Assembly: GCF_030013595.1 (NCBI RefSeq)
Contig: NZ_CP122768.1
DNA: 64,000 nucleotides
From: Escherichia coli
GTDB taxonomy: Bacteria > Pseudomonadota > Gammaproteobacteria > Enterobacterales > Enterobacteriaceae
Direction: 5' to 3' (one strand)
The translations under genes and the position numbers were made by a program. The notes beneath the pieces are model-generated. The model did not search any database, had not been told where the DNA came from, and was given only the letters and a program-made list of their open reading frames with translations. Below are positions 12,663 to 40,184 of the stretch, one piece after another (position 1 is the first letter of the stretch; every line of letters starts with the position of its first letter).

Positions 12663-13547
12663 TCTCATATCAAATTTTCCACTCTCCACTAATTGTTCTG
12701 TGCACATTTGTAGTAAAAACAGTGGACTGCCTTCTACCGGCTTTTCTTTAGCCAGCAACGAAATCTGTCGATAGAAGGTTGGTTCGAGAGGAACGGAACA
12801 CAATTCATCTGCAATGGTTTTCAGCGTTAACTCTGGTAATAAGGCGATGCCTAATCCCTGTCGAATAAAACTGATCGCTGTATCCGGGTGATTAAATTCA
12901 TATTTTATCTGTGGGGTAATATTCTTTTCTTTAAATAGTGCCATAATGCTTAATTCATAGCGTCCTTTACTAATAATTAATGGTTCACCCATTAACTCTT
13001 CCACTGTAATAGTGCTGTTTTTTGCCAGAGCATGGTTGGGCGGTAACACTACGGTGAATTTATCCTGATAAATGGGCACGGAGTACATTCCGCTCACCGG
13101 AAAATGAACAAAACCGGCATCAATGGATTCATTCTGAAGGGAATCAATAATCGCTGTGCTATTTTCCTCAAAAGGAATAATTTTTATATTCGGATGATGA
13201 ATTTCAAAGTAGCGAATCACAGCCGGTAAGATACAGGCGCAGACGCTGGGGAAACAACCAAGTCTCAGCGTTCTTTGAGGGTTCTGCTTTTCCTGCTCGG
13301 CTATCTCTTTTACTGCGTTCACTTCCCGATTAATGGCGCGCAGATGATGCATAATGCGGTGACCTGCAGAGGTCAGTTGTATAGCTTTACGGCGATCGCG
13401 TAACAGTATATTCACGCCAAGTTCTTGTTCGAGGGCAGCAATTGCCTGACTTACCGCCGACTGCGTCATGAACAATCGCTTGCTGGCTTCAGTAAAGCCA
13501 CCGTAATCCAGTACGGCGAGTAAAGAATTTATTTGGGTAAGAGTCAT
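12648..13547 (-). CDS. LysR-family transcriptional regulator (intact counterpart of the K-12 yfaH remnant)
   Basis: 299-aa ORF with N-terminal HTH (..FTEASKRLFMTQSAVSQAIAALE..) and a LysR substrate-binding region; AT-rich coding sequence. Confidence 0.8.
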   Translation of the reverse strand: MTLTQINSLLAVLDYGGFTEASKRLFMTQSAVSQAIAALEQELGVNILLRDRRKAIQLTSAGHRIMHHLRAINREVNAVKEIAEQEKQNPQRTLRLGCFPSVCACILPAVIRYFEIHHPNIKIIPFEENSTAIIDSLQNESIDAGFVHFPVSGMYSVPIYQDKFTVVLPPNHALAKNSTITVEELMGEPLIISKGRYELSIMALFKEKNITPQIKYEFNHPDTAISFIRQGLGIALLPELTLKTIADELCSVPLEPTFYRQISLLAKEKPVEGSPLFLLQMCTEQLVESGKFDMRQDGA

Positions 13548-13682
13548 TAGAGTTTGCTAATCAATAATATTAAAACGATTAATTTCTCTAATAGCATGCC
13601 GCCATTTATACTTCTGTTCTGCAAAGTACATCACAATTTGACGCAACCGCAGTAACGGGAGTGTTGTCTGCGAGCGTCATCC

Positions 13683-13701
13683 TGACAGGCGGTAGGGTAT
13701 G
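13683..13701 (+). repeat. 19-bp direct repeat, copy 1 (tgacaggcggtagggtATG), ending at the MFS start codon
   Basis: 18 of 19 nt identical to 14954..14972. Confidence 0.7.
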
Positions 13702-14889
13702 AAAGAGAAGTTATGGACGAAGGATTTTTGGGCAATAACCATCATCAGCTTTATTATTTTCTTCGTCTTTTATGTTTTACTAACATTGTTGCCAATTTAT
13801 ATCTCTGACCGCTTGCATGCCTCTCCTGATAAAGCCGGTTTATTGGTGACTTTATTTTTAATTGCCGCCATTGTTATTCGCCCATTTGCCGGGCAATGGG
13901 TGGGTAAATACTCGAATAAAACTATTCTGGTGCTCTCTTCTCTGGCCTTTTTATTGGTCACAGCGTTGTATCCTTTTTGCCACTCAATTGAATCACTGCT
14001 TTTTATTCGGGTGCTTCATGGTATTACCTTCGGGGTTATCACTACGGTAAAAGGAACGATTTCCGCGCGGCTGATCCCGGCCTCCCGACGTGGGGAGGGC
14101 ATCAGTTTTTTCTCTCTGGCAATGGGGCTGGCAATGGTGGTCGGGCCGTGGATTGGCCTGAATATGGCGCGCTGGGAGGCCTTTAATATGGCTTTCTGGT
14201 TATGCACCGGCGTGGCAGCGGTGGGGATTATTCTGTCGCTGATTATGACAGTGCCGCCGGTTATCAGCCATGCTGATGGTTCAACGCCGAAAATGGGCTT
14301 CGCCGCCATGTTCGATCGCGCGGCGTTGCCATTTGCGATGGTCACCTTTTTTATGACCTTTTCGTATGCCGGGGTTTCTGCTTTTCTGGCGCTTTATGCA
14401 CGCGAACTTAACCTGATGTCGGCAGCCAGTAATTTCCTGCTTTGCTACGCTATCTTCCTGATGATTTGCCGTACCTTTACCGGCAATGTCTGCGACAAAA
14501 AAGGACCGAAATATGTGGTTTACCCTTGCCTTGTGTTCTTTACGGTAGGACTGGTGGTTCTCGGCTACACCCAGGGAAGCATAATGATGGTTGTTTCTGG
14601 CGCATTGATTGGTATCGGGTATGGTTCCGTGACGCCAGTTTTTCAGACGCAGATTATCAGTTCAGTGGAACCGCATAAAATCGGTGTCGCAAACTCCCTC
14701 TTCTTCAATGCGATGGATGCAGGCCTGGCGCTGGGAGCCTGTGTGATGGGGATGATGGTTGCACATACTGGCTACCGAATGATTTATCTGCTGGGTGCAC
14801 TATTAGTGGTAGTGGCTGGTGGAGTCTATGCGCTGCAAATGAAGGGTAAAAGCGGTGTCGCGCTAGTAGTGGCAAAAGAAATTCATTAA
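13699..14889 (+). CDS. MFS transporter, substrate unknown
   Basis: 396-aa ORF with about 12 hydrophobic segments; transcribed divergently from the LysR gene. Confidence 0.8.
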   Translation: MKEKLWTKDFWAITIISFIIFFVFYVLLTLLPIYISDRLHASPDKAGLLVTLFLIAAIVIRPFAGQWVGKYSNKTILVLSSLAFLLVTALYPFCHSIESLLFIRVLHGITFGVITTVKGTISARLIPASRRGEGISFFSLAMGLAMVVGPWIGLNMARWEAFNMAFWLCTGVAAVGIILSLIMTVPPVISHADGSTPKMGFAAMFDRAALPFAMVTFFMTFSYAGVSAFLALYARELNLMSAASNFLLCYAIFLMICRTFTGNVCDKKGPKYVVYPCLVFFTVGLVVLGYTQGSIMMVVSGALIGIGYGSVTPVFQTQIISSVEPHKIGVANSLFFNAMDAGLALGACVMGMMVAHTGYRMIYLLGALLVVVAGGVYALQMKGKSGVALVVAKEIH

Positions 14890-14953
14890 TACGACACGTT
14901 TCATTAAGATTTTTCGCAGGTAACCACCTATAGTCATTGTCGTAAATAAAAAA

Positions 14954-14972
14954 TGACAGGCGATAGGGTATG
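14954..14972 (+). repeat. 19-bp direct repeat, copy 2 (tgacaggcgatagggtATG), ending at the inaA start codon
   Basis: 18 of 19 nt identical to 13683..13701. Confidence 0.7.
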
Positions 14973-15620
14973 GCAGTTTCAGCAAAGCACGACGAATTTA
15001 ATCACTGGTGGGCAACAGAGGGCGACTGGGTTGAAGAGCCTAACTATCGCCGTAATGGTATGAGCGGGGTGCAATGCGTCGAGCGCAACGGCAAAAAGCT
15101 ATATGTAAAGCGCATGACGCATCATCTGTTTCATTCCGTACGTTATCCGTTCGGCCGACCAACGATTGTCCGTGAGGTTGCGGTAATTAAAGAACTGGAA
15201 CGGGCTGGTGTCATCGTGCCGAAGATTGTTTTTGGTGAAGCGGTGAAAATTGAGGGGGAATGGCGCGCGTTGCTGGTGACTGAAGATATGGCGGGGTTCA
15301 TCAGCATTGCTGACTGGTATGCCCGGCATGCAGTAACGCCCTATTCTGACGAAGTACGGCAAGCCATGTTGAAAGCAGTGGCGCTGGCGTTTAAGAAAAT
15401 GCATAGCGTTAATCGTCAGCATGGCTGTTGCTATGTTCGCCATATCTATGTGAAAACAGAAGGTAAGGCAGAAGCTGGATTTCTTGATCTGGAGAAAAGT
15501 CGTCGCCGCTTGCGTCGCGATAAAGCGATTAATCATGACTTCCGCCAGCTGGAAAAATATCTGGAGCCGATCCCCAAAGCGGACTGGGAGCAGGTGAAAG
15601 CGTATTACTACGCCATGTAA
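14970..15620 (+). CDS. inaA: acid-inducible Kdo/WaaP-family kinase-like protein
   Basis: 216-aa ORF recognised by recall of InaA. Confidence 0.85.
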   Translation: MAVSAKHDEFNHWWATEGDWVEEPNYRRNGMSGVQCVERNGKKLYVKRMTHHLFHSVRYPFGRPTIVREVAVIKELERAGVIVPKIVFGEAVKIEGEWRALLVTEDMAGFISIADWYARHAVTPYSDEVRQAMLKAVALAFKKMHSVNRQHGCCYVRHIYVKTEGKAEAGFLDLEKSRRRLRRDKAINHDFRQLEKYLEPIPKADWEQVKAYYYAM

Positions 15621-15623
15621 TCG

Positions 15624-15665
15624 TTGTAGGCCAGATAATACGCGTAAGCGTCGTATCTGGCGCTA
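15624..15665. repeat. REP-like palindromic element
   Basis: gccagataatacgcgtaagcgtcgtatctggc inverted repeat between inaA and yfaE. Confidence 0.5.
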
Positions 15666-15673
15666 GTACCCGA

Positions 15674-15928
15674 TCACAACTCGATTTCAATATCGCCTTT
15701 TGCCCGGCAACAACAGGGCAAAATTTCCCCCGGCTGAATAAAGGCTAACGGTTCGGCAATCCAGTCCACCTGGCCTGCAACAAGGCGCGTGCGACAGGAA
15801 CCGCAGTAACCTTCGCGGCACTGGTACTCAACCGCCACATTGTGGGATTCCAGCGCCGCCAGAAGGGAAGGGTGTTCATCCTGGCACAGCAGTTGTGTGC
15901 CAGTGATGCGCAGGGTAACGCGAGCCAT
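15674..15928 (-). CDS. yfaE: 2Fe-2S ferredoxin associated with ribonucleotide reductase
   Basis: 84-aa ORF with Cys cluster (CREGYCGSC..C); start overlaps the nrdB stop. Confidence 0.88.
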   Translation of the reverse strand: MARVTLRITGTQLLCQDEHPSLLAALESHNVAVEYQCREGYCGSCRTRLVAGQVDWIAEPLAFIQPGEILPCCCRAKGDIEIEL

Positions 15929-17058
15929 CAGAGCTGGAAGTTACTCAAATCGTCGGTGTCCACTTCCGAGTCAATCTGCCCGACCAGATAAGAACTGACT
16001 TCCACTTCCTGCGGAGCAACCTGCACGTTATCAGACACCAGCCAGGTATTGATCCACGGGATCGGGTTGGAGCGAGTCTGGAACGGCAGATCCAAACCGA
16101 CTGCCTGCATGCGGATATTGGTGATGTATTCAACGTACTGGCAGAGAATGTCTTTATTCAGACCAATCATCGAACCGTCACGGAACAGATAATCCGCCCA
16201 GTCTTTCTCTTGCTGTGCCGCCTGGACAAACAGGTCATAGCATTCCTGCTTACATTCTTCGGCAATTTCCGCCATCTCCGGATCATCCGCGCCGCTGCGC
16301 AGCAGATTCAGCATATGCTGAGTACCGGTCAGGTGCAGGGCTTCGTCGCGGGCAATCAGGCGAATAATTTTGGCGTTACCTTCCATCAGCTCACGTTCTG
16401 CAAAGGCAAAGGAACAAGCAAAGCTGACGTAGAAGCGGATCGCTTCCAGCGCGTTAACGCTCATCAGGCAGAGATACAGTTTTTTCTTCAGCTCGCGCAG
16501 GCTAACGGTTACGGTTTTACCGTTAACGGTGTGGGTACCTTCGCCCAGCAGATGCCAGTAGCTGGTCATTTCGATCAGCTCATCGTAATAGCTGGAGATC
16601 CCTTCCGCACGTTTCTGGATCTGCTCGTTGGTGACGATATCATCAAACACAACGGACGGATCGTTAACGATATTACGAATGATATGGGTATAAGAACGAG
16701 AGTGAATGGTTTCTGAGAACGCCCAGGTTTCGACCCAGGTTTCCAGTTCAGGGATCGAGATCAGCGGCAGCAGTGCCACGTTCGGGCTGCGACCCTGAAT
16801 GGAGTCCAGCAACGTCTGATATTTCAGGTTGCTGATAAAGATGTGTTTTTCGTGTTCAGGCAGTGCCTGGTAATCGATACGGTCACGAGAAACGTCAACT
16901 TCTTCCGGACGCCAGAAGAAAGAGAGCTGCTTTTCGATCAGCTTTTCGAAGATGTCATATTTTTGCTGATCGTAGCGAGCCACGTTGACCGGCTGACCAA
17001 AGAACATCGGTTCTTTGAGCTGATCATTTTTCGTCTGTGAAAAGGTGGTATATGCCAT
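15928..17058 (-). CDS. nrdB: ribonucleotide reductase class Ia beta subunit
   Basis: ORF trimmed to the ATG at 17058 ([14 protein letters not shown]..); 376 aa; radical site region [14 protein letters not shown]. Confidence 0.92.
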
Positions 17059-17079
17059 GAATGTGTCCTGTTGGGAGTT

Positions 17080-17198
17080 TAATGCCGGATAAGGCATTTT
17101 ACGCCGCATCCTGTGCCTGATGCGACGCTGGCGCGTCTTATCAGGCCTACAAACCGAGCCGTATGCCGGATAAGGCGTTCACGCCGCATCCGGCATCT
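17080..17198. repeat. REP cluster (BIME) in the nrdA-nrdB spacer
   Basis: Three REP-type palindromes (gccggataaggc..gccgcatcc, gatgcgacgctggcgcgtcttatcaggcctac, gccggataaggcgttcacgccgcatccggc). Confidence 0.8.
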
Positions 17199-17203
17199 CA
17201 ATA

Positions 17204-19489
17204 TCAGATCTTACATGCGCCGCTTTCGCAGCCATCGTCCTGGATTGACGGTACCAGATCGTCCTGCGCGTCTTCAGCGCCGTCACGGGTGTTCTGATAA
17301 TACAGCGTTTTGACCCCGAATTTGTAGGCGGTGAGCAGGTCTTTCAGCAGTTGCTGCATCGGCACTTTTCCTGACGGGAAGCGTGACGGATCGTAGTTGG
17401 TGTTAGCAGAGATCGACTGATCGATAAATTTCTGCATGATACCCACCAGTTGCAGGTAGCCATCGTTACCCGGCATTTCCCACAGCAGCTCATAGGCGTC
17501 GTGCAGATGCTCGTAGTCCGGCACCACCTGGCGCAGAATACCGTCTTTCGACGCTTTGATGCTGACGTAACCGCGCGGCGGTTCAATACCGTTAGTGGCG
17601 TTAGAGATCTGCGAAGAGGTCTCGGACGGCATCAGAGCAGAAAGCGTGGAGTTACGCAGGCCGTGCGTTTTGATTGACTCACGCAGTGCTTCCCAGTCGT
17701 AATGCAGCGGCTCATTAGCGATGGCATCCAGATCTTTCTTATAGGTATCGATCGGCAGGATCCCTTTCGCGTAAGTGGTTTCGTTAAACCACGGGCACGC
17801 GCCTTGCTCTTTCGCCAGCTCATTAGAGGCTTTCAGCAGGTAATACTGAATAGCTTCGAAGGTTTTATGCGTCAGGTTGTTGGCGCTGCCGTCGGAGTAG
17901 CGTTTACCGTGCTTCGCCAGGTAGTAAGCGAAGTTGATCACACCAATACCCAGCGTACGACGACCCATCGCTCCACGTTTGGCGGCCGGGATCGGGTAAT
18001 CCTGATAGTCCAGCAGCGCGTCGAGTGCGCGTACCGCCAGAATCGCCAGCTCTTCCAGTTCATCCAGGCTATTAATTGCGCCCAGGTTGAAAGCAGACAG
18101 CGTACACAGCGCGATTTCACCGTTCTCGTCGTTGACATCATTCAGCGGTTTGGTCGGCAGGGCGATTTCCAGGCACAGGTTAGACTGGCGCACTGGCGCG
18201 ATGGCCGGATCAAACGGGCTATGGGTATTGCAGTGGTCAACGTTCTGAATATAGATACGACCGGTAGACGCACGTTCCTGCATCATCAGCGAGAACAGCT
18301 CAACGGCTTTCACACGCTGCTTGCGGATGCTGTCGTCTTTCTCATATTTGGTGTACAGGCGTTCAAACTCTTCCTGATCGGCGAAGAACGCGTCGTACAG
18401 CCCCGGCACGTCGGACGGGCTGAACAGAGTGATATCTTCACCTTTCAGCAGACGGGTATACATCAGTTTGTTGATTTGTACCCCGTAGTCCATATGACGC
18501 ACGCGGTTGCCTTCAACCCCACGGTTGTTTTTCAACACCAGCAGGCTTTCCACTTCCAGATGCCACATCGGGTAGAACAGCGTAGCCGCACCGCCACGCA
18601 CACCGCCCTGAGAGCAGGATTTCACCGCTGTCTGGAAATGCTTATAGAACGGAATACAACCGGTATGGAACGCTTCGCCACCGCGAATCGGGCTACCCAG
18701 CGCACGAATACGCCCGGCATTGATGCCGATCCCGGCACGCTGGGAAACGTATTTAACAATCGCGCTGGAGGTGGCGTTAATGGAATCCAGGCTGTCACCG
18801 CACTCGATCAGTACGCAGGAGCTGAACTGACGAGTCGGGGTACGCACGCCGGACATGATTGGCGTCGGCAGCGAAATTTTAAATGTGGAAACCGCGTCGT
18901 AAAAACGCTTCACGTATTGCAGGCGCGTTTCACGCGGGTAGTTCGAGAACAGGCACGCGGCAACCAGAATATAAAGGAACTGGGCGCTTTCGTAGATTTC
19001 GCCGGTCACGCGGTTCTGTACCAGATATTTGCCTTCCAGCTGCTTAACGGCAGCATAAGAGAAGGTCATATCACGGTCGTGATCGATAAACGTGTCCATC
19101 TGCTTGAACTCTTCTTCCGTGTAGTCTTCCAGCAGATGATTATCGTATTTGCCCATCTCGACCATTTTCACCACGTGGTCGTACAGCGCAGGCGGCTCAA
19201 ACTGGCCGTAGGCTTTTTTACGCAGGTGGAAGATCGCCAGGCGCGCGGCGAGATACTGATAATCCGGCGCATCACGGGAGATCAGGTCTGCGGCAGCCTT
19301 AATAATGGTTTCGTGGATGTCAGAGGTCTTGATACCGTCATAAAACTGAATGTGGGAGCGCAGTTCGACCTGGGAAATCGAAACGTTATGCAGTCCTTCT
19401 GCCGCCCAATCCAGAACGCGATGGATTTTGTCGAGATTGATGCGCTCTGTGCTACCGTCGCGCTTTGTCACCAGCAGATTCTGATTCAT
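17204..19489 (-). CDS. nrdA: ribonucleotide reductase class Ia alpha subunit
   Basis: 761-aa ORF with N-terminal ATP-cone region; adjacent to nrdB. Confidence 0.93.
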   Translation of the reverse strand: MNQNLLVTKRDGSTERINLDKIHRVLDWAAEGLHNVSISQVELRSHIQFYDGIKTSDIHETIIKAAADLISRDAPDYQYLAARLAIFHLRKKAYGQFEPPALYDHVVKMVEMGKYDNHLLEDYTEEEFKQMDTFIDHDRDMTFSYAAVKQLEGKYLVQNRVTGEIYESAQFLYILVAACLFSNYPRETRLQYVKRFYDAVSTFKISLPTPIMSGVRTPTRQFSSCVLIECGDSLDSINATSSAIVKYVSQRAGIGINAGRIRALGSPIRGGEAFHTGCIPFYKHFQTAVKSCSQGGVRGGAATLFYPMWHLEVESLLVLKNNRGVEGNRVRHMDYGVQINKLMYTRLLKGEDITLFSPSDVPGLYDAFFADQEEFERLYTKYEKDDSIRKQRVKAVELFSLMMQERASTGRIYIQNVDHCNTHSPFDPAIAPVRQSNLCLEIALPTKPLNDVNDENGEIALCTLSAFNLGAINSLDELEELAILAVRALDALLDYQDYPIPAAKRGAMGRRTLGIGVINFAYYLAKHGKRYSDGSANNLTHKTFEAIQYYLLKASNELAKEQGACPWFNETTYAKGILPIDTYKKDLDAIANEPLHYDWEALRESIKTHGLRNSTLSALMPSETSSQISNATNGIEPPRGYVSIKASKDGILRQVVPDYEHLHDAYELLWEMPGNDGYLQLVGIMQKFIDQSISANTNYDPSRFPSGKVPMQQLLKDLLTAYKFGVKTLYYQNTRDGAEDAQDDLVPSIQDDGCESGACKI

Positions 19490-19566
19490 GTATGTCGTAC
19501 CTGTTTTTGGAATTCTTTCCGCAATAGTTTCATGCAGACTACCTGTAGTGAGGGAAGCTGCTTAGA

Positions 19567-19612
19567 ACACTATATATAGGGGGTATGTTTGGGATTCACT
19601 GCAAGATAGTGT
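19567..19612 (-). promoter_or_regulatory. candidate NrdR box pair in the nrdAB control region
   Basis: CCCCTATATATAGTGT (sense, 19567..19582) matches the recalled NrdR box consensus at 14 of 16 positions; a weaker box lies at 19597..19612, about 30 bp centre to centre. Confidence 0.35.
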
Positions 19613-19631
19613 GAAAATGGCCCTCTTGCAA
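19603..19631 (-). promoter_or_regulatory. candidate nrdAB sigma70 promoter (-35 TTGCAA, 17 bp, -10 TATCTT)
   Basis: Hexamers with 17-bp spacing sit about 110 nt upstream of the nrdA ATG. Confidence 0.35.
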
Positions 19632-19642
19632 GTGCATAACTT

Positions 19643-19651
19643 TGTGGATAA
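19643..19651 (-). promoter_or_regulatory. DnaA box TTATCCACA upstream of the nrdAB promoter
   Basis: Perfect 9-mer on the minus strand (plus strand TGTGGATAA). Confidence 0.55.
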
Positions 19652-20184
19652 CTCAGGAAGGAAAAAGTGGCTTTCGCGCACCTTAGGTCAGACAAGGTGT
19701 CCGGGAAAGTCAATGGGAAGAGAAAAATTTGTTAAAAATAACTGTTCGGCGATTTCTTGAACGGAAGAATAGGTTAGATAAATTGATATAGATGGTTTAT
19801 TAATCTTTTGGCTAATGATTGCAAAAATTGATCTAAGCACGAATCATCGCATAATCTGATGTATCAGTTCTGGTCAATATATAAGCGAATGTAAGCGATT
19901 GTTGATATCGAAATGGTTGTTTTCTCTTCGGTTATTGTTAAATGCGAAGCCATTTTGTTAATTTACCTTATATTATAAGAAAATTATTCATTACTTTAAT
20001 TCAGTTTAAATATAACTAATATCCCTTAAGGTGATTAACTTGAATTATGACGCACTGATATTATTCATGAAATAATAACAAAATAGCCATTGCACGGGGT
20101 TGAACAAATTACAAAAGAAAAATAACCCATATCGTATAATGCGATTAAATATGCCGTCTTATAGAAAATGATGGTCAGATTAAT

Positions 20185-23100
20185 ATGCGGATTATTTTTC
20201 TACGCAAGGAGTATTTATCTTTACTCCCGTCAATGATTGCGTCTCTTTTCTCTGCTAACGGTGTCGCGGCGGCCATTGATTTATGCCAGGGATATGATAT
20301 CAAAGCGAGTTGTCACGCCAGCAGGCAAAGCCTTTCAAGCTTTACGCAGGACTGGAGCATCGCCGATGGGCAATGGCTGGTTTTTTCGGATATGACTAAT
20401 AACGCCAGCGGTGGGGCCGTATTTTTGCAACAAGGAGCGGAGTTTTCTCTATCGCCAGAAAATGAAACTGGAATGACTCTGTTTGCCATTAATACTGTCT
20501 CAGGAGAATATAATAACGGCGGGGCAATATTTGCTAAAGAAAACTCAACGCTGAATCTTACTAATGTTATTTTTTCCGATAACGTTGCAGGTGGCTATGG
20601 TGGCGCAATCTATTCTTCTGGTACTAACGATACCGGTGTCGTCGATTTAAGTGTCACTAACGCCGTGTTTCGCAATAACATCGCTAATGACGGCAAAGGT
20701 GGTGCAATTTATACCATCAACAATGACGTCTATTTAAGTGAAGTTATTTTTGACAATAACCAGGCATATACATCAACAAGTTACAGCGATGGCGATGGGG
20801 GCGCAATCGATGTCACCGATAATAATAGCGATATCACGCATCCGTCAGGTTTCACAATAATAAATAACACCGCATTTACAAATAACACTGCCGAAGGTTA
20901 TGGCGGGGCAATTTATACCAATAGCGTGACGGCTCCCTATCTTATTGATATTTCGATTGATGACAGCTACAGCCAGAACGGCGGCGTGTTACTCGATGAG
21001 AACAATAGCGCGGCAGGTTATGGGGATGGTCCTTCCACTGCGGCGGGCGGCTTTATGTATCTCGGCTTAAGTGAAGTTACCTTTGATATTGCCGACGGAA
21101 AAACGCTGGTTATCGGCAATACAGAGAATGACGGAGCTGTTGACTCTATTGCTGGTACCGGGGTAATCACCAAAACAGGTTCCGGCGATCTGGTACTTAA
21201 TGCAGATAACAATGACTTTACTGGCGAGATGCAGATAGAAAACGGTGAAGTTACCCTGGGCCGCAGCAACTCCCTGATGAATGTCGGCGATACGCATTGC
21301 CAGGACGATCCGCAAGACTGCTACGGTCTGACGATAGGGAGTATTGATCAGTATCAGAATCAGGCTGAGCTAAACGTTGGCTCGACCCAACAAACTTTTG
21401 TGCACGCATTGACGGGCTTTCAGAATGGCACTTTAAATATCGATGCTGGTGGCAACGTTACTGTTAATCAGGGCAGTTTTGCTGGCACCATCGAAGGTGC
21501 TGGTCAGCTCACCATTGCGCAAAACGGCAGCTACGTGCTGGCAGGGGCTCAGTCGATGGCGCTAACTGGCGATATAGTCGTTGATGATGGTGCGGTGCTT
21601 TCACTGGAAGGCGACGCGACAGATCTCGCCGCTCTCCAGGACGATCCGCAGTCGATTGTGGTAAACGGCGGTGTGCTCGATCTCTCTGATTTCTCCACCT
21701 GGCAGAGCGGTACATCATACAACGATGGCCTTGAAGTCAGCGGCAGCGGCGGTACGGTTATCGGCAGTCAGGATGTGGTGGATCTCGCAGGTGGCGACAA
21801 TTTGCATATCGGCGGCGACGGTAAAGATGGCGTCTACGTGGTGATCGATGCGGGCGACGGGCTGGTTAGCCTGGCAAACAATAATAGTTACCTGGGCACC
21901 ACGCAAATCGCTTCCGGTACGCTGGTGGTGAGTGACAACTCGCAGCTTGGCAATACCGACGAAAACCGTCAGCTCATCTTTACTGATAGCCAACAACAAA
22001 GTGAGATGGAAATTACCGCTGACGTTGATACTCGTTCAGAGGCAGCAGGTCACGGGCGTGATATTGAAATGCGCGCCGACGGTGAAGTGGCGGTTGATGC
22101 GGGGGTAGACACGCAGTGGGGCGCACTGATGGCTGACAGCAGCGGGCAGCATCAGGATGAGGGTAGCACATTGACGAAAACGGGGGCGGGTACGCTGGAA
22201 CTGACCGCCAGCGGTACAACGCAGTCGGCGGTACGTGTCGAAGAAGGCACCCTGCAAGGTGATGTTGCGGATATCTTCCCTTATGCTTCGTCGCTGTGGG
22301 TCGGTGACGGGGCAACGTTCAAGACTGGCGCGGATCAGGATATTCAGTCAATTGATGCTACTTCCAGCGGCACTATCGACATCAGCGATGGTACGGTTTT
22401 GCGCCTGACCGGGCAGGATACTTCCGTCGCCCTTAATGCCTCACTGTTTAACGGCAATGGGACGCTGGTGAATGCCACCGATGGCGTGACGTTGACAGGC
22501 GAGCTTAATACCAACCTTGAAACTGACAGCCTGACCTATCTTGCCGACGTGACGGTTAATGGTGATCTGACCAATACGTCCGGTGCGGTTAGCCTGCAAA
22601 ATGGCGTCGCTGGCGATACGCTGACGGTAAACGGTGATTATACCGGCGGCGGTACGCTACTGCTCGATAGCGAATTAAACGGCGATGACTCGGCAAGTGA
22701 CCAACTGGTGTTGAACGGTAATACTGCTGGCAACACGACCGTGGTAATTAATCCCATTACGGGTATTGGTGAGCCGACATCTACAGGTATTAAAGTGGTT
22801 GATTTCGCAGCCGATCCAACGCAATTTCAAAACAATGCGCAGTTCAGTCTGGCGGGCAGCGGCTACGTCAATATGGGCGCGTATGACTACACGCTGGTGG
22901 AAGATAACAACGACTGGTATCTGCGATCGCAAGAAGTAACGCCACCATCGCCACCTGATCCAGACCCGACTCCCGATCCTGATCCCACGCCGGATCCTGA
23001 TCCAACACCCGACCCGGCCCCGGACCCTACGCCTGCCTACCAGCCGGTGTTGAATGCCAAAGTTGGTGGATATTTTAATAACCTGCGGGCGGCAAATCAG

Positions 23101-23943
23101 GCGTTTGTGATGGAGCGACACGATCACGCTGGTGGCGATGGTCAGACGCTGAATTTACGTGTTATCGGCGGACGTTATCATTACACAGCAGCGGGGCAAC
23201 TGGCTCAGCATGAAGACACTTCTACGGTGCAGCTTAGCGGCGACTTGTTTAGCGGGCGCTGGGGCGCGGATGGCGAGTGGATGCTTGGGGCGGTTGGTGG
23301 CTACAGTGATAACCAGGGCGACAGCCGCTCGAATATGACCGGAACTCGCGCCGATAACCAGAACCACGGTTATGCCGTTGGTCTGACCTCAAGCTGGTTT
23401 CAGCACGGTAATCAGAAGCAGGGGGCCTGGCTGGATAGCTGGCTGCAATACGCGTGGTTTAACAATGATGTTTCCGAACAAGACGATGGCACAGATCATT
23501 ACCATTCGTCGGGGATTATCGCCTCGCTGGAAGCGGGGTATCAGTGGTTACCGGGGCGTGGTGTGGTGATTGAACCGCAGGCGCAGGTGATTTATCAGGG
23601 CGTGCAGCAGGATGATTTTACCGCCGCTAACCATGCGCGCGTGTCACAATCGCAGGGTGATGATATTCAAACGCGGCTGGGTTTACACAGCGAATGGCGT
23701 ACCGCTGTTCATGTCATACCAACATTAGATCTGAATTATTATCACGATCCCCATGCGACGGAAATTGAAGAAGATGGCAGCACTATCAGTGACGATGCGG
23801 TGAAGCAACGGGGGGAAATAAAAGTGGGAGTAACGGGCAATATCAGCCAGCGAGTGTCCCTGCGCGGCAGCGTGGCGTGGCAGAAAGGGAGTGATGATTT
23901 TGCCCAGACGGCAGGGTTTTTGTCGATGACGGTGAAATGGTAG
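20185..23943 (+). CDS. yfaL: type V autotransporter adhesin
   Basis: 1252-aa ORF: signal peptide, G/N/T-rich beta-helix passenger repeats, proline-rich linker, C-terminal beta-barrel ending in W. Confidence 0.88.
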   Translation: MRIIFLRKEYLSLLPSMIASLFSANGVAAAIDLCQGYDIKASCHASRQSLSSFTQDWSIADGQWLVFSDMTNNASGGAVFLQQGAEFSLSPENETGMTLFAINTVSGEYNNGGAIFAKENSTLNLTNVIFSDNVAGGYGGAIYSSGTNDTGVVDLSVTNAVFRNNIANDGKGGAIYTINNDVYLSEVIFDNNQAYTSTSYSDGDGGAIDVTDNNSDITHPSGFTIINNTAFTNNTAEGYGGAIYTNSVTAPYLIDISIDDSYSQNGGVLLDENNSAAGYGDGPSTAAGGFMYLGLSEVTFDIADGKTLVIGNTENDGAVDSIAGTGVITKTGSGDLVLNADNNDFTGEMQIENGEVTLGRSNSLMNVGDTHCQDDPQDCYGLTIGSIDQYQNQAELNVGSTQQTFVHALTGFQNGTLNIDAGGNVTVNQGSFAGTIEGAGQLTIAQNGSYVLAGAQSMALTGDIVVDDGAVLSLEGDATDLAALQDDPQSIVVNGGVLDLSDFSTWQSGTSYNDGLEVSGSGGTVIGSQDVVDLAGGDNLHIGGDGKDGVYVVIDAGDGLVSLANNNSYLGTTQIASGTLVVSDNSQLGNTDENRQLIFTDSQQQSEMEITADVDTRSEAAGHGRDIEMRADGEVAVDAGVDTQWGALMADSSGQHQDEGSTLTKTGAGTLELTASGTTQSAVRVEEGTLQGDVADIFPYASSLWVGDGATFKTGADQDIQSIDATSSGTIDISDGTVLRLTGQDTSVALNASLFNGNGTLVNATDGVTLTGELNTNLETDSLTYLADVTVNGDLTNTSGAVSLQNGVAGDTLTVNGDYTGGGTLLLDSELNGDDSASDQLVLNGNTAGNTTVVINPITGIGEPTSTGIKVVDFAADPTQFQNNAQFSLAGSGYVNMGAYDYTLVEDNNDWYLRSQEVTPPSPPDPDPTPDPDPTPDPDPTPDPAPDPTPAYQPVLNAKVGGYFNNLRAANQAFVMERHDHAGGDGQTLNLRVIGGRYHYTAAGQLAQHEDTSTVQLSGDLFSGRWGADGEWMLGAVGGYSDNQGDSRSNMTGTRADNQNHGYAVGLTSSWFQHGNQKQGAWLDSWLQYAWFNNDVSEQDDGTDHYHSSGIIASLEAGYQWLPGRGVVIEPQAQVIYQGVQQDDFTAANHARVSQSQGDDIQTRLGLHSEWRTAVHVIPTLDLNYYHDPHATEIEEDGSTISDDAVKQRGEIKVGVTGNISQRVSLRGSVAWQKGSDDFAQTAGFLSMTVKW
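22941..23037 (+). repeat. proline-rich PDPT repeat linker in yfaL
   Basis: Encodes PPSPPDPDPTPDPDPTPDPDPTPDPAPDPTP; about three 18-nt units. Confidence 0.7.
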
Positions 23944-23949
23944 CTGCTT

Positions 23950-23998
23950 TGCGCCCGGCATTGTAGCCGGATGTGGTGCGAGCACCTTATCCGGCTAA
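23950..23998. repeat. REP-like palindromic element
   Basis: gccggatgtggtgcgagcaccttatccggc between the yfaL and ubiG 3' ends. Confidence 0.5.
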
Positions 23999-24003
23999 CA
24001 ATT

Positions 24004-24726
24004 TTATTTATTCTGCGTGTGCAGCATATAGTTCACATCCACGCCGGGGCCGAGCTTAAAGGAATTAGTGATCGGGTTGTAATGCAGCCCAGTCATATGC
24101 CGCTCTTTAAGGCTTGTCTGATCCACCCAGCCCAGCAGTTCTGCCGGTTTAATAAACTTCTTCACATCATGTGTACCTTTAGGCACCATGCGCAAAATAT
24201 ATTCCGCGCCGACTACCGCCATCAGCCATGACTTGCCGTTGCGGTTAAGCGTCGAGAAAAAGACATCGCCGCCCGGTTTCACCAGTTGCGCACAGGCTCT
24301 TACCACTGACTGCGGATCGGGCACGTGCTCCAGCATCTCCATGCAGGTCACCACATCATACTGCTCGGCATGTTTTGCCGCGTGCTCTTCCACGGTTTCC
24401 TGCACGTAATCCACCTGAATGCCGCTTTCCAGCGCGTGCAGCTTTGCCACCTGCAATGGCTCAAAGCCCATATCCAGACCGGTCACCGTCGCGCCTTCGC
24501 GCGCCATACTCTCGGCCAGAATGCCGCCGCCACAACCGACATCGAGTACCTTTTTGCCAAATAAACCGCCAGCACGCTCGGCAATATAGCCCAGACGCAG
24601 CGGGTTAATGCGGTGCAGCGGTTTGAACTCACCTTCAAGATCCCACCAGCGGGAGGCGACAGCTTCAAATTTAGCGATCTCTTCGTGGTCTACGTTATGG
24701 TTTACCGGCGATTTTTCGGCATTCAT
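24004..24726 (-). CDS. ubiG: ubiquinone biosynthesis O-methyltransferase
   Basis: ORF trimmed to the ATG at 24726 ([11 protein letters not shown]..); SAM-binding motif [12 protein letters not shown]; 240 aa. Confidence 0.9.
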
Positions 24727-24872
24727 TGGCACTTCTACTCCGTAATTGGCAAGACAAACGAGTATATCAGGCATTGGATGTGAATAAAGCGTATAGGTTT
24801 ACCTCAAACTGCGCGGCTGTGTTATAATTTGCGACCTTTGAATCCGGGATACAGTAGAGGGATAGCGGTTAG

Positions 24873-27500
24873 ATGAGCGACCTTGCGAGAGAAATTACAC
24901 CGGTCAACATTGAGGAAGAGCTGAAGAGCTCCTATCTGGATTATGCGATGTCGGTCATTGTTGGCCGTGCGCTGCCAGATGTCCGAGATGGCCTGAAGCC
25001 GGTACACCGTCGCGTACTTTACGCCATGAACGTACTAGGCAATGACTGGAACAAAGCCTATAAAAAATCTGCCCGTGTCGTTGGTGACGTAATCGGTAAA
25101 TACCATCCCCATGGTGACTCGGCGGTTTATGATACGATCGTCCGTATGGCGCAGCCATTCTCGCTGCGTTACATGCTGGTAGACGGTCAGGGTAACTTCG
25201 GTTCCATCGACGGCGACTCTGCGGCGGCAATGCGTTATACGGAAATCCGTCTGGCGAAAATTGCCCATGAACTGATGGCCGATCTCGAAAAAGAGACGGT
25301 CGATTTCGTTGATAACTATGACGGCACGGAAAAAATTCCCGACGTCATGCCAACCAAAATTCCTAACCTGCTGGTGAACGGTTCTTCCGGTATCGCCGTA
25401 GGTATGGCAACCAACATCCCGCCGCACAACCTGACGGAAGTCATCAACGGTTGTCTGGCGTATATCGATGATGAAGACATCAGCATTGAAGGGCTGATGG
25501 AACACATCCCGGGGCCGGACTTCCCGACGGCGGCAATCATTAACGGTCGTCGCGGTATTGAAGAAGCTTACCGTACCGGTCGTGGCAAGGTATATATCCG
25601 CGCCCGTGCCGAAGTGGAAGTTGACGCCAAAACCGGACGTGAAACCATTATCGTCCACGAAATTCCGTATCAGGTAAACAAAGCGCGCCTGATCGAGAAG
25701 ATTGCGGAACTGGTAAAAGAAAAACGCGTGGAAGGCATCAGCGCGCTGCGTGACGAGTCTGACAAAGACGGTATGCGCATCGTGATTGAAGTTAAACGCG
25801 ATGCGGTCGGTGAAGTTGTGCTTAACAACCTCTACTCCCAGACCCAGTTGCAGGTTTCTTTCGGTATCAACATGGTGGCATTGCATCATGGTCAGCCGAA
25901 GATCATGAACCTGAAAGACATCATCGCGGCGTTTGTTCGTCACCGCCGCGAAGTGGTGACTCGTCGTACTATTTTCGAACTGCGTAAAGCTCGCGATCGT
26001 GCTCATATCCTTGAAGCATTAGCCGTGGCACTGGCGAACATCGACCCGATCATCGAACTGATCCGTCATGCGCCGACGCCTGCAGAAGCGAAAACTGCGC
26101 TGGTTGCTAATCCGTGGCAGCTGGGCAACGTTGCCGCGATGCTCGAACGAGCGGGCGATGATGCTGCGCGTCCGGAATGGCTGGAGCCAGAGTTCGGCGT
26201 GCGTGATGGTCTGTACTACCTGACCGAACAGCAAGCTCAGGCGATTCTGGATCTGCGTTTGCAGAAACTGACCGGCCTTGAGCATGAAAAACTGCTCGAC
26301 GAATACAAAGAGCTGCTGGATCAGATCGCAGAACTGCTGCGTATTCTTGGCAGTGCCGATCGTCTGATGGAAGTGATCCGCGAAGAGCTGGAACTGGTTC
26401 GTGAACAGTTCGGTGACAAACGTCGTACTGAAATTACTGCCAACAGCGCCGACATCAACCTGGAAGATCTGATCACCCAGGAAGATGTGGTTGTGACGCT
26501 CTCTCACCAGGGCTACGTGAAGTATCAGCCGCTTTCTGAATACGAAGCGCAGCGTCGTGGCGGGAAAGGTAAATCTGCCGCACGTATTAAAGAAGAAGAC
26601 TTTATTGACCGACTGCTGGTGGCGAACACCCACGACCATATTCTGTGCTTCTCCAGCCGTGGTCGCGTCTATTCGATGAAAGTCTATCAGTTGCCGGAAG
26701 CCACTCGTGGCGCGCGTGGTCGTCCGATCGTCAACCTGCTGCCGCTGGAGCAGGACGAACGTATCACTGCGATCCTGCCGGTGACCGAGTTTGAAGAAGG
26801 CGTGAAAGTCTTCATGGCGACCGCTAACGGTACCGTGAAGAAAACTGTCCTCACCGAATTCAACCGTCTGCGTACCGCCGGTAAAGTGGCGATCAAACTG
26901 GTTGACGGCGATGAGCTGATCGGCGTTGACCTGACCAGCGGCGAAGACGAAGTAATGCTGTTCTCCGCTGAAGGTAAAGTGGTGCGCTTTAAAGAGTCTT
27001 CTGTCCGTGCGATGGGCTGCAACACCACCGGTGTTCGTGGTATTCGTTTAGGCGAAGGCGATAAAGTCGTCTCTCTGATCGTGCCTCGTGGCGATGGCGC
27101 AATCCTCACCGCAACGCAGAACGGTTATGGTAAACGTACCGCAGTGGCGGAATACCCGACTAAGTCGCGTGCGACGAAAGGGGTTATCTCCATCAAGGTT
27201 ACCGAACGTAACGGTTTAGTGGTTGGCGCGGTGCAGGTAGATGACTGCGACCAGATCATGATGATCACCGATGCCGGTACGCTGGTACGTACTCGCGTTT
27301 CGGAAATCAGCATCGTGGGCCGTAACACCCAGGGCGTGATCCTCATCCGTACTGCGGAAGATGAAAACGTAGTGGGTCTGCAACGTGTTGCTGAACCGGT
27401 TGACGAGGAAGATCTGGATACCATCGACGGCAGTGCCGCGGAAGGGGACGATGAAATCGCTCCGGAAGTGGACGTTGACGACGAGCCAGAAGAAGAATAA
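24873..27500 (+). CDS. gyrA: DNA gyrase subunit A
   Basis: 875-aa ORF; active-site region AAMRYTEIR; QRDR GDSAVYD with Ser83 and Asp87; acidic C-terminal tail. Confidence 0.95.
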
Positions 27501-27521
27501 TTTTACTTCTTCATGCCAAAA

Positions 27522-27541
27522 GGGAGCTATCTCCCTTGTTT
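27522..27541 (+). terminator. candidate terminator after gyrA
   Basis: GGGAG-ctat-CTCCC hairpin followed by TTGTTT. Confidence 0.4.
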
Positions 27542-27648
27542 GAATTGAAAAGTCCAGGCTGCAAAGTCTGGGCTTTTGTCGTATTAGGGCGCGGTAAAGT
27601 TTTGCTGTGCTCATAAAAAATGGCTGGCTTTACACAAGGAATGTGGCA

Positions 27649-34495
<6,847 letters not shown>

Positions 34496-36145
34496 GTGAA
34501 CTGGCGCAGAATCGTCTGGCTATTGGCGTTGGTTACTCTGCCAACGCTTGCGGAGGAGACGCCGTTACAACTGGTGCTGCGCGGTGCGCAGCACGATCAA
34601 CTGTATCAGCTGTCGTCATCAGGCGTGACCAAAGTCTCAGCATTACCTGACATGCTCACCACGCCGTTAGGGAGTTTGTGGAAACTGTATGTTTACGCCT
34701 GGCTGGAGGATACCCATCAACCGGAGCAGGCCTACCAGTGTCGTGGAAACTCCCCGGAAGAGGTTTATTGTTGTCAGGCTGGGGAGAGCATAACGCGCGA
34801 TACCGCGCTGGTACGTTCCTGTGGGCTCTATTTTGCGCCGCAGCGGTTGCATATTGGCGCAGATGTGTGGGGGCAATACTGGCAACAGCGTCAGGCACCT
34901 GCGTGGTTAGCGTCTCTTACTACGCTGAAGCCAGAAACCTCGGTAACGGTTAAATCACTGCTTGATTCATTAGCGACGTTACCCGCGCAAAACAAAGCTC
35001 AGGAAGTCTTACTGGATGTGGTGCTGGACGAGGCGAAAATCGGTGTCGCATCTATGCTCGGTAGTCGGGTACGGGTGAAAACCTGGAGCTGGTTTGCCGA
35101 TAATAAACAGGAAATCCGTCAGGGTGGTTTTGCTGGCTGGTTAACCGATGGTACACCGCTGTGGGCTACTGGCAGTGGCACCAGCAAAACGGTACTAACC
35201 CGTTATGCGACGGTGCTTAATCGAGTTTTGCCAGTGCCGACGCAGGTTGCCAGTGGGCAATGTGTAGAGGTGGAACTGTTTGCCCGCTATCCGCTGAAGA
35301 AAATCACAGCGGAAAAGAGTACGACGGCAGTAAAACCCGGCGTACTTAATGGGCGCTATCGTGTGACGTTTACTAATGGTAACCACATTACGTTTGTCAG
35401 CCACGGTGAGACGACCTTACTGAGCGAAAAGGGCAAACTGAAATTGCAGTCGCATCTTGATCGTGAAGAGTACGTTGCCAGAGTTCTGGATCGCGAGGCG
35501 AAAAGTACGCCCCCTGAGGCAGCGAAAGCCATGACCGTGGCGATTCGCACTTTTTTACAGCAAAACGCCAATCGGGAAGGCGATTGCCTGACCATCCCCG
35601 ACAGTAGCGCCACGCAGCGTGTTTCTGCTTCGCCAGCGACCACGGGGGCGCGAACGATGACCGCCTGGACGCAGGATCTCATCTATGCGGGCGATCCGGT
35701 TCATTATCACGGCAGTCGCGCTACCGAAGGGACGCTTTCCTGGCGGCAAGCCATGGCCCAGGCGGGGCAGGGGGAGCGTTACGACCAGATACTCGCGTTT
35801 GCTTATCCCGACAACAGCCTTAGCCGCTGGGGAGCGCCACGCTCAACCTGCCAGTTATTACCCAAAGCGAAAGCCTGGCTGGCGAAAAAAATGCCGCAGT
35901 GGCGGCGTATATTACAAGGTGAGACGGGGTACAACGAACCAGACGTGTTTGCGGTTTGCCGTTTAGTCTCAGGTTTCCCCTATACCGATCGGCAGCAGAA
36001 ACGGCTGTTTATTCGTAACTTCTTTACGCTTCAGGATCGGCTCGATTTAACCCATGAGTATCTGCATCTGGCCTTTGATGGTTATCCCACCGGGCTTGAT
36101 GAGAACTATATCGAAACGCTGACCCGACAATTATTAATGGACTAA
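34496..36145 (+). CDS. yfaQ: exported protein of unknown function
   Basis: 549-aa ORF with a GTG start directly abutting the yfaS TAA; signal peptide. Confidence 0.8.
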   Translation: MNWRRIVWLLALVTLPTLAEETPLQLVLRGAQHDQLYQLSSSGVTKVSALPDMLTTPLGSLWKLYVYAWLEDTHQPEQAYQCRGNSPEEVYCCQAGESITRDTALVRSCGLYFAPQRLHIGADVWGQYWQQRQAPAWLASLTTLKPETSVTVKSLLDSLATLPAQNKAQEVLLDVVLDEAKIGVASMLGSRVRVKTWSWFADNKQEIRQGGFAGWLTDGTPLWATGSGTSKTVLTRYATVLNRVLPVPTQVASGQCVEVELFARYPLKKITAEKSTTAVKPGVLNGRYRVTFTNGNHITFVSHGETTLLSEKGKLKLQSHLDREEYVARVLDREAKSTPPEAAKAMTVAIRTFLQQNANREGDCLTIPDSSATQRVSASPATTGARTMTAWTQDLIYAGDPVHYHGSRATEGTLSWRQAMAQAGQGERYDQILAFAYPDNSLSRWGAPRSTCQLLPKAKAWLAKKMPQWRRILQGETGYNEPDVFAVCRLVSGFPYTDRQQKRLFIRNFFTLQDRLDLTHEYLHLAFDGYPTGLDENYIETLTRQLLMD

Positions 36146-36149
36146 TGCT

Positions 36150-36926
36150 ATGCGAAAGATTTTTCTTCCGTTGTTACTGGTGGCGCTTTCGCCTGTTGCC
36201 CATGGCGAAGGTGTGCAGGAAGTCGAGATTGATGCACCGCTCTCTGGCTGGCATCAGGCAGAGGGCGAAGATGCCAGTTTTTCACAATCGATCAATTACC
36301 CGGCGTCGTCCGTCAACATGGCAGATGATCAAAATATCTCAGCGCAGATCCGCGGCAAAATAAAGAATTATGCTGCGGCGGGTAAAGTTCAGCAGGGCCG
36401 GCTGGTGGTCAACGGTGCCAGTATGCCGCAGAGAATTGAATCCGATGGTTCATTTGCACGCCCTTATATTTTCACTGAAGGCAGCAACAGCGTGCAGGTC
36501 ATCAGCCCGGATGGGCAAAGCCGACAAAAAATGCAGTTTTACTCAACGCCGGGCGCTGGAGCGATCCGCGCGCGTTTACGGCTGGTTCTCTCCTGGGACA
36601 CGGACAATACCGATCTCGACCTTCACGTTGTTACGCCCGATGGCGAACACGCCTGGTACGGTAACACCGTGCTGAAAAACAGTGGTGCACTGGATATGGA
36701 TGTCACGACGGGGTACGGACCCGAGATCTTCGCCATGCCAGCGCCAGTTCACGGACGTTATCAGGTGTATATCAACTACTATGGCGGACGCAGCGAAACG
36801 GAATTGACGACCGCCCAACTGACGCTGATCACCGATGAAGGATCGGTCAATGAGAAACAGGAAACATTTATTGTACCGATGCGTAATGCTGGCGAGCTGA
36901 CGCTGGTGAAAAGTTTTGACTGGTGA
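36150..36926 (+). CDS. yfaP: exported protein of unknown function
   Basis: 258-aa ORF; ATG 4 nt after the yfaQ stop; signal peptide MRKIFLPLLLVALSPVAHG. Confidence 0.8.
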   Translation: MRKIFLPLLLVALSPVAHGEGVQEVEIDAPLSGWHQAEGEDASFSQSINYPASSVNMADDQNISAQIRGKIKNYAAAGKVQQGRLVVNGASMPQRIESDGSFARPYIFTEGSNSVQVISPDGQSRQKMQFYSTPGAGAIRARLRLVLSWDTDNTDLDLHVVTPDGEHAWYGNTVLKNSGALDMDVTTGYGPEIFAMPAPVHGRYQVYINYYGGRSETELTTAQLTLITDEGSVNEKQETFIVPMRNAGELTLVKSFDW

Positions 36927-36963
36927 TTAATGGGGTTACCTTCGCCGTCGATGTTCAAGAAAA

Positions 36964-36995
36964 CGCCCGATAACTTTCGCTATCGGGTGTTTTTA
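36964..36995. terminator. bidirectional terminator between yfaP and atoB
   Basis: CCCGATA-loop-TATCGGG hairpin followed by TGTTTTT. Confidence 0.6.
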
Positions 36996-36999
36996 TTGA

Positions 37000-38184
37000 T
37001 TAATTCAACCGTTCAATCACCATCGCAATTCCCTGGCCGCCACCAATGCACAGTGTTGCCAGCCCCAGCGTTTTATCGTGTGCCTGCATGGCATGTAATA
37101 GTGTGACCAGAATACGAGCACCACTGGCACCGATAGGATGCCCGAGCGCGATGGCCCCGCCGTTGACATTCACTTTCTCAGAATCAAAGCCCAGGGTTTT
37201 CCCAACGGCAAGGAACTGTGCAGCAAATGCTTCATTAGCCTCAATGAGATCAATATCCGCCAGTTGCAGCCCCGCCAGTTGTAACGCTTTTTGCGTGGCA
37301 GGTACTGGCCCCATACCCATCAATGCGGGGGGCACGCCACCGCTGGCATAACTTTTAATGCGAGCCAGGGGGGTAAGGCCTGCTGCCAGCGCCGCAGATT
37401 CTTCCATAATCACCAGAGCGGCAGCACCGTCGTTAATACCAGACGCGTTCCCGGCGGTGACTGTTCCTGCTTTATCGAAGGCCGGGCGCAATGCGCCTAA
37501 CGCTTCAGTCGTAGAATCCGCTTTCGGGAATTCGTCTTGACTGAAGACGAAGGTTTTCTTCCGGGTGACAACATTTACCGGGACGATTTCGGCTGTAAAA
37601 GCACCGGACTCAATTGCGGCTGCCGCTTTACGCTGTGAATGTAGCGCCAGTTCATCCTGCATTTCTCGGGTAATTCCGTACTCTTTGGCCACGTTCTCGG
37701 CGGTAATCCCCATATGATAACCATGGGTGGCGCACATCAGACCATCGCGCAGGATTACGTCATAAACCTGTCCGTCTCCAAGACGATAACCAGCGCGTGC
37801 TTTTGCATCGAGTAAGTAGGGCGCTAAACTCATATTTTCCATACCCCCCGCCACAATGCTTTGCGCCTGACCTGCCTGAATTGCCTGGGCGGCAAGCGCC
37901 ACACTTTTAAGACCCGAACCACACACTTTATTGACCGTGAATCCGCATACCGTTTCTGCCAGCCCGCTTTTTAACAGTGCCTGACGTGCCGGATTTTGCC
38001 CCAACCCGGCTTGCAACACGTTACCCATAATCACTTCATCAATGTGTAGTGAATCGATTTTTGCACGTTCAATGGCGGCTTTAATTACTGTCGCCCCCAG
38101 GTCGATGGCGCTGGTGGAAGCGAGTGAACCGTTAAAACTACCGATAGCAGTACGTACCGCACTGACGATGACACAATTTTTCAT
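37000..38184 (-). CDS. atoB: acetyl-CoA acetyltransferase (thiolase II)
   Basis: 394-aa ORF with thiolase active-site regions (VNKVCGSG, C-terminal GGGQG). Confidence 0.92.
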
Positions 38185-38214
38185 TTTTTATTCCTTCTGT
38201 CTGTAGGGTTGCCG

Positions 38215-39537
38215 TCAGAACAGCGTTAAACCAATGACGAAAATGACGCCGGAGAAGAGCAGGGCAGTGATGCAATAGCCCATGATGTCGCGGACACCGA
38301 GTCCGGCGATTGCCAGTGCTGGCAGCGCCCAGAATGGTTGTGCCATGTTCATCCATTGCTCGCCGTAGGCGATCGCCATTACCGATTTACCGAGATCAGC
38401 GCCCAGCGCCTGGGCTGCGGGTATCACGAAAGGTCCCTGAATAACCCAGTGACCGCCGCCAGACGGAACGGCGAAGTTAATCAGTGCAGAACTAAAAAAG
38501 GTCATTACCGGGAAGGTGTCTTTGTTCGCAACATTGATGAAGAATTCGGTAATGAGTCCGCCCAGACCGGAATGCTCCATCATCAGTTGGATGCCAGCGT
38601 AGAAGGGGAATTGCACCAGAATACCGGCAGTACTGCGTGCTGCCGCGCTGATAGCACGCATATAAGCCATTGGCGTTTTATGTAGCAGCAGACCCGCAAT
38701 CATAAACATCAGGTTGACGGTATTGATGGTGATGTTGAAGCCATGTTCGCTGAAGTACATCGCAAGGTAAGCGATACCGAGTGCGCCGATGATCAACGTC
38801 AGAATGCGGCTTTCTTCCAGTCGCTCGGATGGTGGGGCATCTTTCGGTAGCTGCTTTTGGAAATCAGCCTCTTCCATGAGTAGTTTCGGATCGATACTCA
38901 CCACGTCAGACGGTTTTGGCATCATCATGCGGGTGATAAATGGCATCACCACAATCAACGCCACAGTGATGAAAATGTTAAAACCACTGAACAGAGTATC
39001 GCCCACCGGGATCAGCCCGGCGATATGCTCAACCGGGTTGCCCGGTGTTGCAGCCAACAGAGGCATTGAGCCAGAGAAACCGCCACCCCAGGTGAGAAAA
39101 CCAATGTAGGCGCAGGCAATGAGCAACGGATAATCAGAACCGGGTACTCGGCGGGCGACTTCACGGGCAAACATTGCGCCGACAACCAAACCAAATCCCC
39201 AGTTGATGACACAAGCGACTGAACCGAAGAAAGTAACCAGCATGACGCCCTGTACGGGCGTCTTTGCGGCGGAGGCGGCAGTACGCAGCAAACTTTTTAC
39301 CGGAGCAGAGCTGGCAAGGGCATGACCGGTAACGATGATAAGCGCCATCTGCATACCAAACGCCAGCAAGTTCCAGAAACCGTCACCCCACATTTTCACC
39401 ATGCTGATCGGCGTTTGTGGTGTTAACCAAAGCGCGATCACGAAAGTTAGCAATGTCAGCAACATGGCAAAGATCAGTGGATCGGGAAGCCACCGGCTGA
39501 CAAAACGCGTCATAAAACGCGATATGCGACCAATCAT
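38215..39537 (-). CDS. atoE: short-chain fatty acid transporter
   Basis: 440-aa multi-pass membrane ORF in the ato operon. Confidence 0.9.
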   Translation of the reverse strand: MIGRISRFMTRFVSRWLPDPLIFAMLLTLLTFVIALWLTPQTPISMVKMWGDGFWNLLAFGMQMALIIVTGHALASSAPVKSLLRTAASAAKTPVQGVMLVTFFGSVACVINWGFGLVVGAMFAREVARRVPGSDYPLLIACAYIGFLTWGGGFSGSMPLLAATPGNPVEHIAGLIPVGDTLFSGFNIFITVALIVVMPFITRMMMPKPSDVVSIDPKLLMEEADFQKQLPKDAPPSERLEESRILTLIIGALGIAYLAMYFSEHGFNITINTVNLMFMIAGLLLHKTPMAYMRAISAAARSTAGILVQFPFYAGIQLMMEHSGLGGLITEFFINVANKDTFPVMTFFSSALINFAVPSGGGHWVIQGPFVIPAAQALGADLGKSVMAIAYGEQWMNMAQPFWALPALAIAGLGVRDIMGYCITALLFSGVIFVIGLTLF

Positions 39538-40184
39538 AAATCACCCCGTTGCGTATTCAGATCGGCGGCGACTTCAAACCGAGCTTCTGTTTTGGCACGC
39601 ACGGTGGCTAAATCACACCCGTCGGCAATTTCGGTGAGCCACATTTTGCCGTCAATAAAACGAAAGACAGCCAGTTCAGTAACCAGCATATGCACCGCAT
39701 GTTGCGCAGTGAGTGGCATGGTGCAGCGGCGCAAAATTTTTGCTGAACCATCTTTGGCACAATGTTCCATGGCGATGATCACTTTGCGCGACCCGGTCAC
39801 CAGATCCATCGCGCCACCCATACCGGGCACCATTTTCCCAGGCACTACCCAGTTCGCGAGGTTTGCTTCTTCGTCTACTTGCAAACCGCCGAGCACGCAG
39901 GCATCAATATGACCGCCGCGGATTAGCGCAAATGACATGGCGCTATCAAACATGGCTGCACCGGGTAAAACACCGCACGGTTGCCCGCCAGCGTTCACCA
40001 GATCTGGATGCGCTGTCGTGACCGGGCCTAAACCGAGGAAGCCGTTTTCCGATTGCAGAGTGATATGAATACCCTCCGGTAAATAATTGGCGACCATTGT
40101 GGGTAAACCGATCCCTAAGTTAACGATGTCACCATCACGAAGCTCTTGCGCCACACGGCGCGCAATACGTTGTTTCGCATCCAT
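39534..40184 (-). CDS. atoA: acetate CoA-transferase beta subunit
   Basis: 216-aa ORF; overlaps atoE by 4 nt. Confidence 0.92.
   Translation of the reverse strand: MDAKQRIARRVAQELRDGDIVNLGIGLPTMVANYLPEGIHITLQSENGFLGLGPVTTAHPDLVNAGGQPCGVLPGAAMFDSAMSFALIRGGHIDACVLGGLQVDEEANLANWVVPGKMVPGMGGAMDLVTGSRKVIIAMEHCAKDGSAKILRRCTMPLTAQHAVHMLVTELAVFRFIDGKMWLTEIADGCDLATVRAKTEARFEVAADLNTQRGDL

Follow-up and report, generated by a model that had tools for sequence, protein, structure and literature searches.

A wild-type quinolone-binding region in gyrA of an Escherichia coli chromosome from a lineage seen mostly in pigs

The window, that is, the whole stretch of 64,000 nucleotides analysed here, carries a run of chromosomal genes that leads from yfaX-rhmD through the glp genes, nrdAB, yfaL, ubiG, gyrA and the yfaA-yfaP cluster, and continues with the ato genes, rcsCBD, ompC, ada-alkB, yojI, mqo and eco to napA. 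When a 25-kb query around gyrA was compared with other genomes, the best matches were the pig faecal isolates HCP5S3_I2 and LCP30S3_I5 (99.9%). The gyrA gene is the sole long open reading frame in its frame and strand according to the ORF list, and it measures 2628 bases both in the window and in K-12. Its neighbourhood is K-12-like (yfaL, then ubiG divergent from gyrA, then yfaA-yfaT-yfaS-yfaQ-yfaP), and the gene order yfaL-ubiG-gyrA-yfaA-yfaT is conserved relative to K-12 together with the orientations. The features of the gene, its flanks and the remainder of the window are the following.

~4688..5659, minus strand: ISNCY-family transposase beside a truncated hypothetical gene, placed by collinearity with HCP5S3_I2
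~12648..14889: pair of a LysR regulator and an MFS transporter between glpQ and inaA, placed by collinearity with HCP5S3_I2
24727..24872, plus strand: ubiG-gyrA intergenic region with the 5' leader and putative gyrA promoter; 146 bases, all identical to K-12
~24822..24830, plus strand: extended -10 motif of the form TG-n-TATAAT, TGTTATAAT, read directly in the sequence
24873..27500, plus strand: gyrA coding sequence, encoding DNA gyrase subunit A; ATG start, 875 codons plus stop
25071..25190, plus strand: codons 67-106, the quinolone-resistance determining region (QRDR); 40 residues, amino acids identical to K-12
25119..25121, plus strand: codon 83, TCG (Ser), wild type; read directly, counting from 24873
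25131..25133, plus strand: codon 87, GAT (Asp), the wild-type residue in a synonymous variant of the reference GAC
25236..25238, plus strand: codon TAT of the catalytic Tyr122, which forms the covalent link to DNA; codon read from the sequence
26550..26570, plus strand: GyrA box QRRGGKG in the C-terminal domain, residues 560-566; motif located at residue 560
about 27520..27547, plus strand: terminator-like hairpin with a 7-pair stem from a consensus scan, 20 nt past the gyrA stop; identical to K-12
29876..34495, plus strand: yfaS, alpha-2-macroglobulin gene, a single intact open reading frame of about 1500 aa
47266..47342, plus strand: naRNA4 / CssrE (Rfam RF02564, 73.8 bits), at or immediately after the 3' end of rcsC
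51003..51096, minus strand: MicF antisense sRNA (Rfam RF00033, 118.7 bits), upstream of ompC
51430..52557: ompC, an intact 375-aa open reading frame

Two of the outlying features call for a brief comment: the naRNA4 / CssrE family is, on our assumption, derived from REP repeats, and yfaS, intact in the window, is presumably a pseudogene in K-12.

A sequence-only reading of this DNA had called the QRDR of gyrA wild type on the strength of codons 83 and 87, and both codons were recovered at the same positions by our direct count from 24873; the 13-residue peptide that it quoted is likewise present in the gyrA translation. The plus strand at 25110..25142 reads CAT GGT GAC TCG GCG GTT TAT GAT ACG ATC GTC, in which one base change at codon 83 (TCG to TTG) would yield Ser83Leu. 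The HinfI site GACTC that overlies codons 82-83, and classically serves for the detection of codon-83 changes, is intact at 25116. The reference codon 87 is GAC, a point on which the earlier reading was silent, and the GAT found here is synonymous. The wild-type call extends to the QRDR as a whole, defined as residues 67-106 (PMC3869551), all of which are identical to the K-12 reference.

To place these codons among E. coli genomes, we searched 5426 complete RefSeq genomes with 30-base queries by megablast, which needed an exact 28-base word, such that a mismatch abolishes the match except at the two outermost bases of each end. The wild-type sequence of codons 75-84 was detected in 3068 of the 5426 genomes, so most genomes are wild type here and the observation is nothing unusual. 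The same stretch with TTG, which corresponds to Ser83Leu, was present in 2303 (~42%), and about 55 genomes remained for the other states. Within this genome set one of the 5426 "complete" genomes lacked a megablast match to gyrA, and one Ser83Leu-type gyrA copy lay on a plasmid-typed record; each is probably an assembly or labelling oddity.

GyrA is the gyrase subunit that breaks and rejoins DNA, and fluoroquinolones intercalate where the DNA gate has been cleaved. In E. coli gyrase the water-metal ion (Mg2+) bridge is anchored by both a serine (Ser83) and an acidic residue (Asp87) (PMC9917921), and Ser83 substitutions dominate among selected mutants (PMC3869551). The mechanism follows this scheme: Ser83 and Asp87 adjoin Tyr122, whose role as the catalytic, DNA-linking residue is described in PMC3869551 and is established knowledge, and anchor the bridge that seats fluoroquinolones in the cleavage complex. 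Since the gene product keeps both anchors and equals K-12 GyrA, it would be expected to be fully quinolone-sensitive. We regard it as virtually certain that gyrA in the window, its quinolone-binding part included, is fully wild type and belongs to an E. coli chromosome of a lineage seen mostly in pigs, that the enzyme should be as drug-sensitive as the reference, because both anchors are retained and the entire protein matches K-12, and that gyrA makes no contribution to resistance. The identity of the gene, the codon numbering, the residues, the reference-like upstream region and the population frequencies are shown directly; the sensitivity of enzyme and cell is what we infer from sequence identity, and by the same identity (100%) to the characterised E. 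coli protein (6rks and others) the subunit is predicted to have supercoiling activity with GyrB. Nothing in the data speaks against the genotype call.

Resistance substitutions outside the QRDR were considered as well. We take GyrA position 196 to be one further resistance-linked site. Positions 50, 51 and 119, also outside the QRDR, have been linked to resistance (PMC3869551). Tyr50, Ala51, Ala119 and Ala196 are all reference residues here because the whole protein equals that of K-12, and none of these sites carries a resistance substitution.

The gyrA genotype by itself does not establish the fluoroquinolone susceptibility of the strain, because the window does not include gyrB, parC, parE or any plasmid-borne determinant. 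The strain could be resistant or less susceptible through qnr, aac(6')-Ib-cr, oqxAB, qepA, up-regulated efflux, or changes in gyrB, parC or parE, in which case "wild type" would mislead about phenotype. This alternative is consistent with the content of the 64-kb chromosomal window, which holds none of gyrB, parC, parE, the regulators of AcrAB-TolC efflux or plasmid genes, with the strong selection in the species to which the ~42% of Ser83Leu genomes points, and with the near-identical pig strain K_EC180, which gained Ser83Leu on the same allele. However, no resistance gene is listed for this stretch in the annotated genome with which the window is collinear, and the window's ompC (375-aa open reading frame) is intact and micF is present; a search of the window for acquired quinolone-resistance genes, by this collinearity and by Rfam, returned none, and only the intact ompC and micF were noted. 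Moreover, it is established that E. coli nearly always reaches high-level chromosomal resistance by way of an initial change in gyrA, and low-level resistance at most would be expected. We consider resistance from outside gyrA unlikely, albeit a real minority chance.

Far less probable is an error of numbering, in which the residues called 83 and 87 would not be the reference positions. The sequence-only reading had itself proposed a check of its numbering against a reference GyrA. We found that the ATG at 24873 opens an 875-aa product which matches E. coli K-12 MG1655 GyrA (b2231, NP_416734.1 / WP_001281242.1) at every residue and without gaps (875/875), and which aligns over 1-875 to 1-875 of PDB 6rks_A, the full-length E. 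coli gyrase subunit A, with identity throughout. Misnumbering is excluded because of this gapless identity to both references, and we give it a negligible probability.

The GyrA box sets gyrase apart from topoisomerase IV, and ParC is without it. The least credible reading, for practical purposes nil, is that the gene is the paralogue parC with the equivalent positions Ser80/Glu84: parC models do match the protein partially, as paralogues should, but they remain under their cut-offs (parC_Gneg, TIGR01062, topoisomerase IV subunit A, 580.3 bits against 628.9), whereas the protein reaches 1310 bits with the NCBIfam gyrA equivalog TIGR01063 (cut-off 877) and 1258.6 bits with NF004043 (cut-off 902), and parC identity was rejected on these cut-offs and on the GyrA box at residues 560-566, with identity to K-12 GyrA and a location in the gyrA neighbourhood also against it. 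The interval 24873..27500 is thus gyrA of the E. coli chromosome, not parC. Identical DNA has been annotated by PGAP as gyrA, WP_001281242.1, in at least 20 complete genomes.

Expression signals around the gene were inspected in the same way. Regulatory changes relative to K-12 were sought in the 146 bp upstream of gyrA and none was found. The TGTTATAAT motif is the putative gyrA promoter, assigned by comparison with the K-12 gyrA promoter and by the identity to K-12; a simple consensus promoter scan did not call this site, and the scan was uninformative. Judging by the sequence of the gene and its flanks, nothing suggests that gyrA would be altered or silenced.

The wild-type protein is encoded by a rare synonymous haplotype. 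The exact 30-mer of codons 80-89 with GTT85 and GAT87 (25110..25139) occurred in only 25 of the 5426 genomes, which are mostly pig isolates, including O139:H1 strains and an ETEC-named series, the remainder being a few other genomes and the three ST2747 records. One additional genome, K_EC180, combines this haplotype with Ser83Leu. In the full-gene search, 24 genomes were listed at 100.0% identity, four of which score slightly lower. At the level of the entire DNA allele, 60 of 5425 genomes shared at least 99% identity, and the other 5365 fell in the 95-99% band.

We considered whether GAT in place of GAC alters the substitutions accessible at codon 87, and rejected this, as the one-step amino-acid neighbours of the two codons are the same (Asn, Gly, Tyr, His, Ala, Val and Glu). 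Evolvability through single mutations is thus unchanged by GAT87. Since GTT85/GAT87 is rare and lineage-restricted, nucleotide assays should translate codons rather than match the K-12 DNA string. It is conceivable, although we hold it only tentatively, that GTT85 with GAT87 could be a lineage marker and could upset QRDR probe or allele-specific assays based on K-12 GAC87, with false "mutant" or failed calls as the outcome. A literature search on a silent polymorphism at codon 85 found nothing specific.

The wild-type gyrA allele is an ordinary, already known allele of a fully characterised gene, and its use is confined to routine resistance-genotype annotation; the label "genotype note, not novelty" given in the sequence-only reading is apt, in keeping with a textbook wild-type allele. 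What it records is a chromosome without the usual first step to fluoroquinolone resistance, a step taken by ~42% of complete RefSeq E. coli.

We finally compared the locus with its known counterparts. A base-by-base comparison with gyrA of E. coli K-12 MG1655 (b2231, NC_000913.3 2336793..2339420, minus strand) gave 50 differences (98.10% identity), of which 50 are synonymous and 0 nonsynonymous, and amino-acid changes were sought across all 875 residues of GyrA and none was found. The synonymous changes in or beside the QRDR include codons 85 (GTC to GTT), 87 (GAC to GAT), 91, 100 and 111. This ratio of 50 synonymous to 0 nonsynonymous sites indicates very strong purifying selection on gyrA. 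Compared with the pig faecal strain HCP5S3_I2, the window is collinear at about 99.93% identity over the part compared (1..63337), apart from an IS3-family element of 1.3 kb that lies between atoS and rcsC in HCP5S3_I2 and is missing from the window (~44306..44310). CFSAN018748 differs in a partial tandem duplication of nrdB of ~0.77 kb, with two annotated pseudogene fragments (L002 11563..12186), which is absent from the window (16617..17402). The window thus derives from a strain that is related to these genomes but distinct from each of them. Over the 2628 bases of gyrA, the DNA is 100% identical to that of the pig-associated W13-16, P15-25 (O139:H1), the ETEC series, CFSAN018748 and HCP5S3_I2. 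The pig isolate K_EC180 (WP_001281218.1), which sits among the 24 genomes listed at 100.0% yet differs by one base, has the same synonymous background and a gene identical to that of the window except at codon 83, which is TTG (Leu) in K_EC180 and TCG (Ser) in the window. A single base, TCG or TTG, separates wild type from the first-step resistance genotype, and in K_EC180 the expected first step towards resistance has occurred on the gyrA allele of the window itself.
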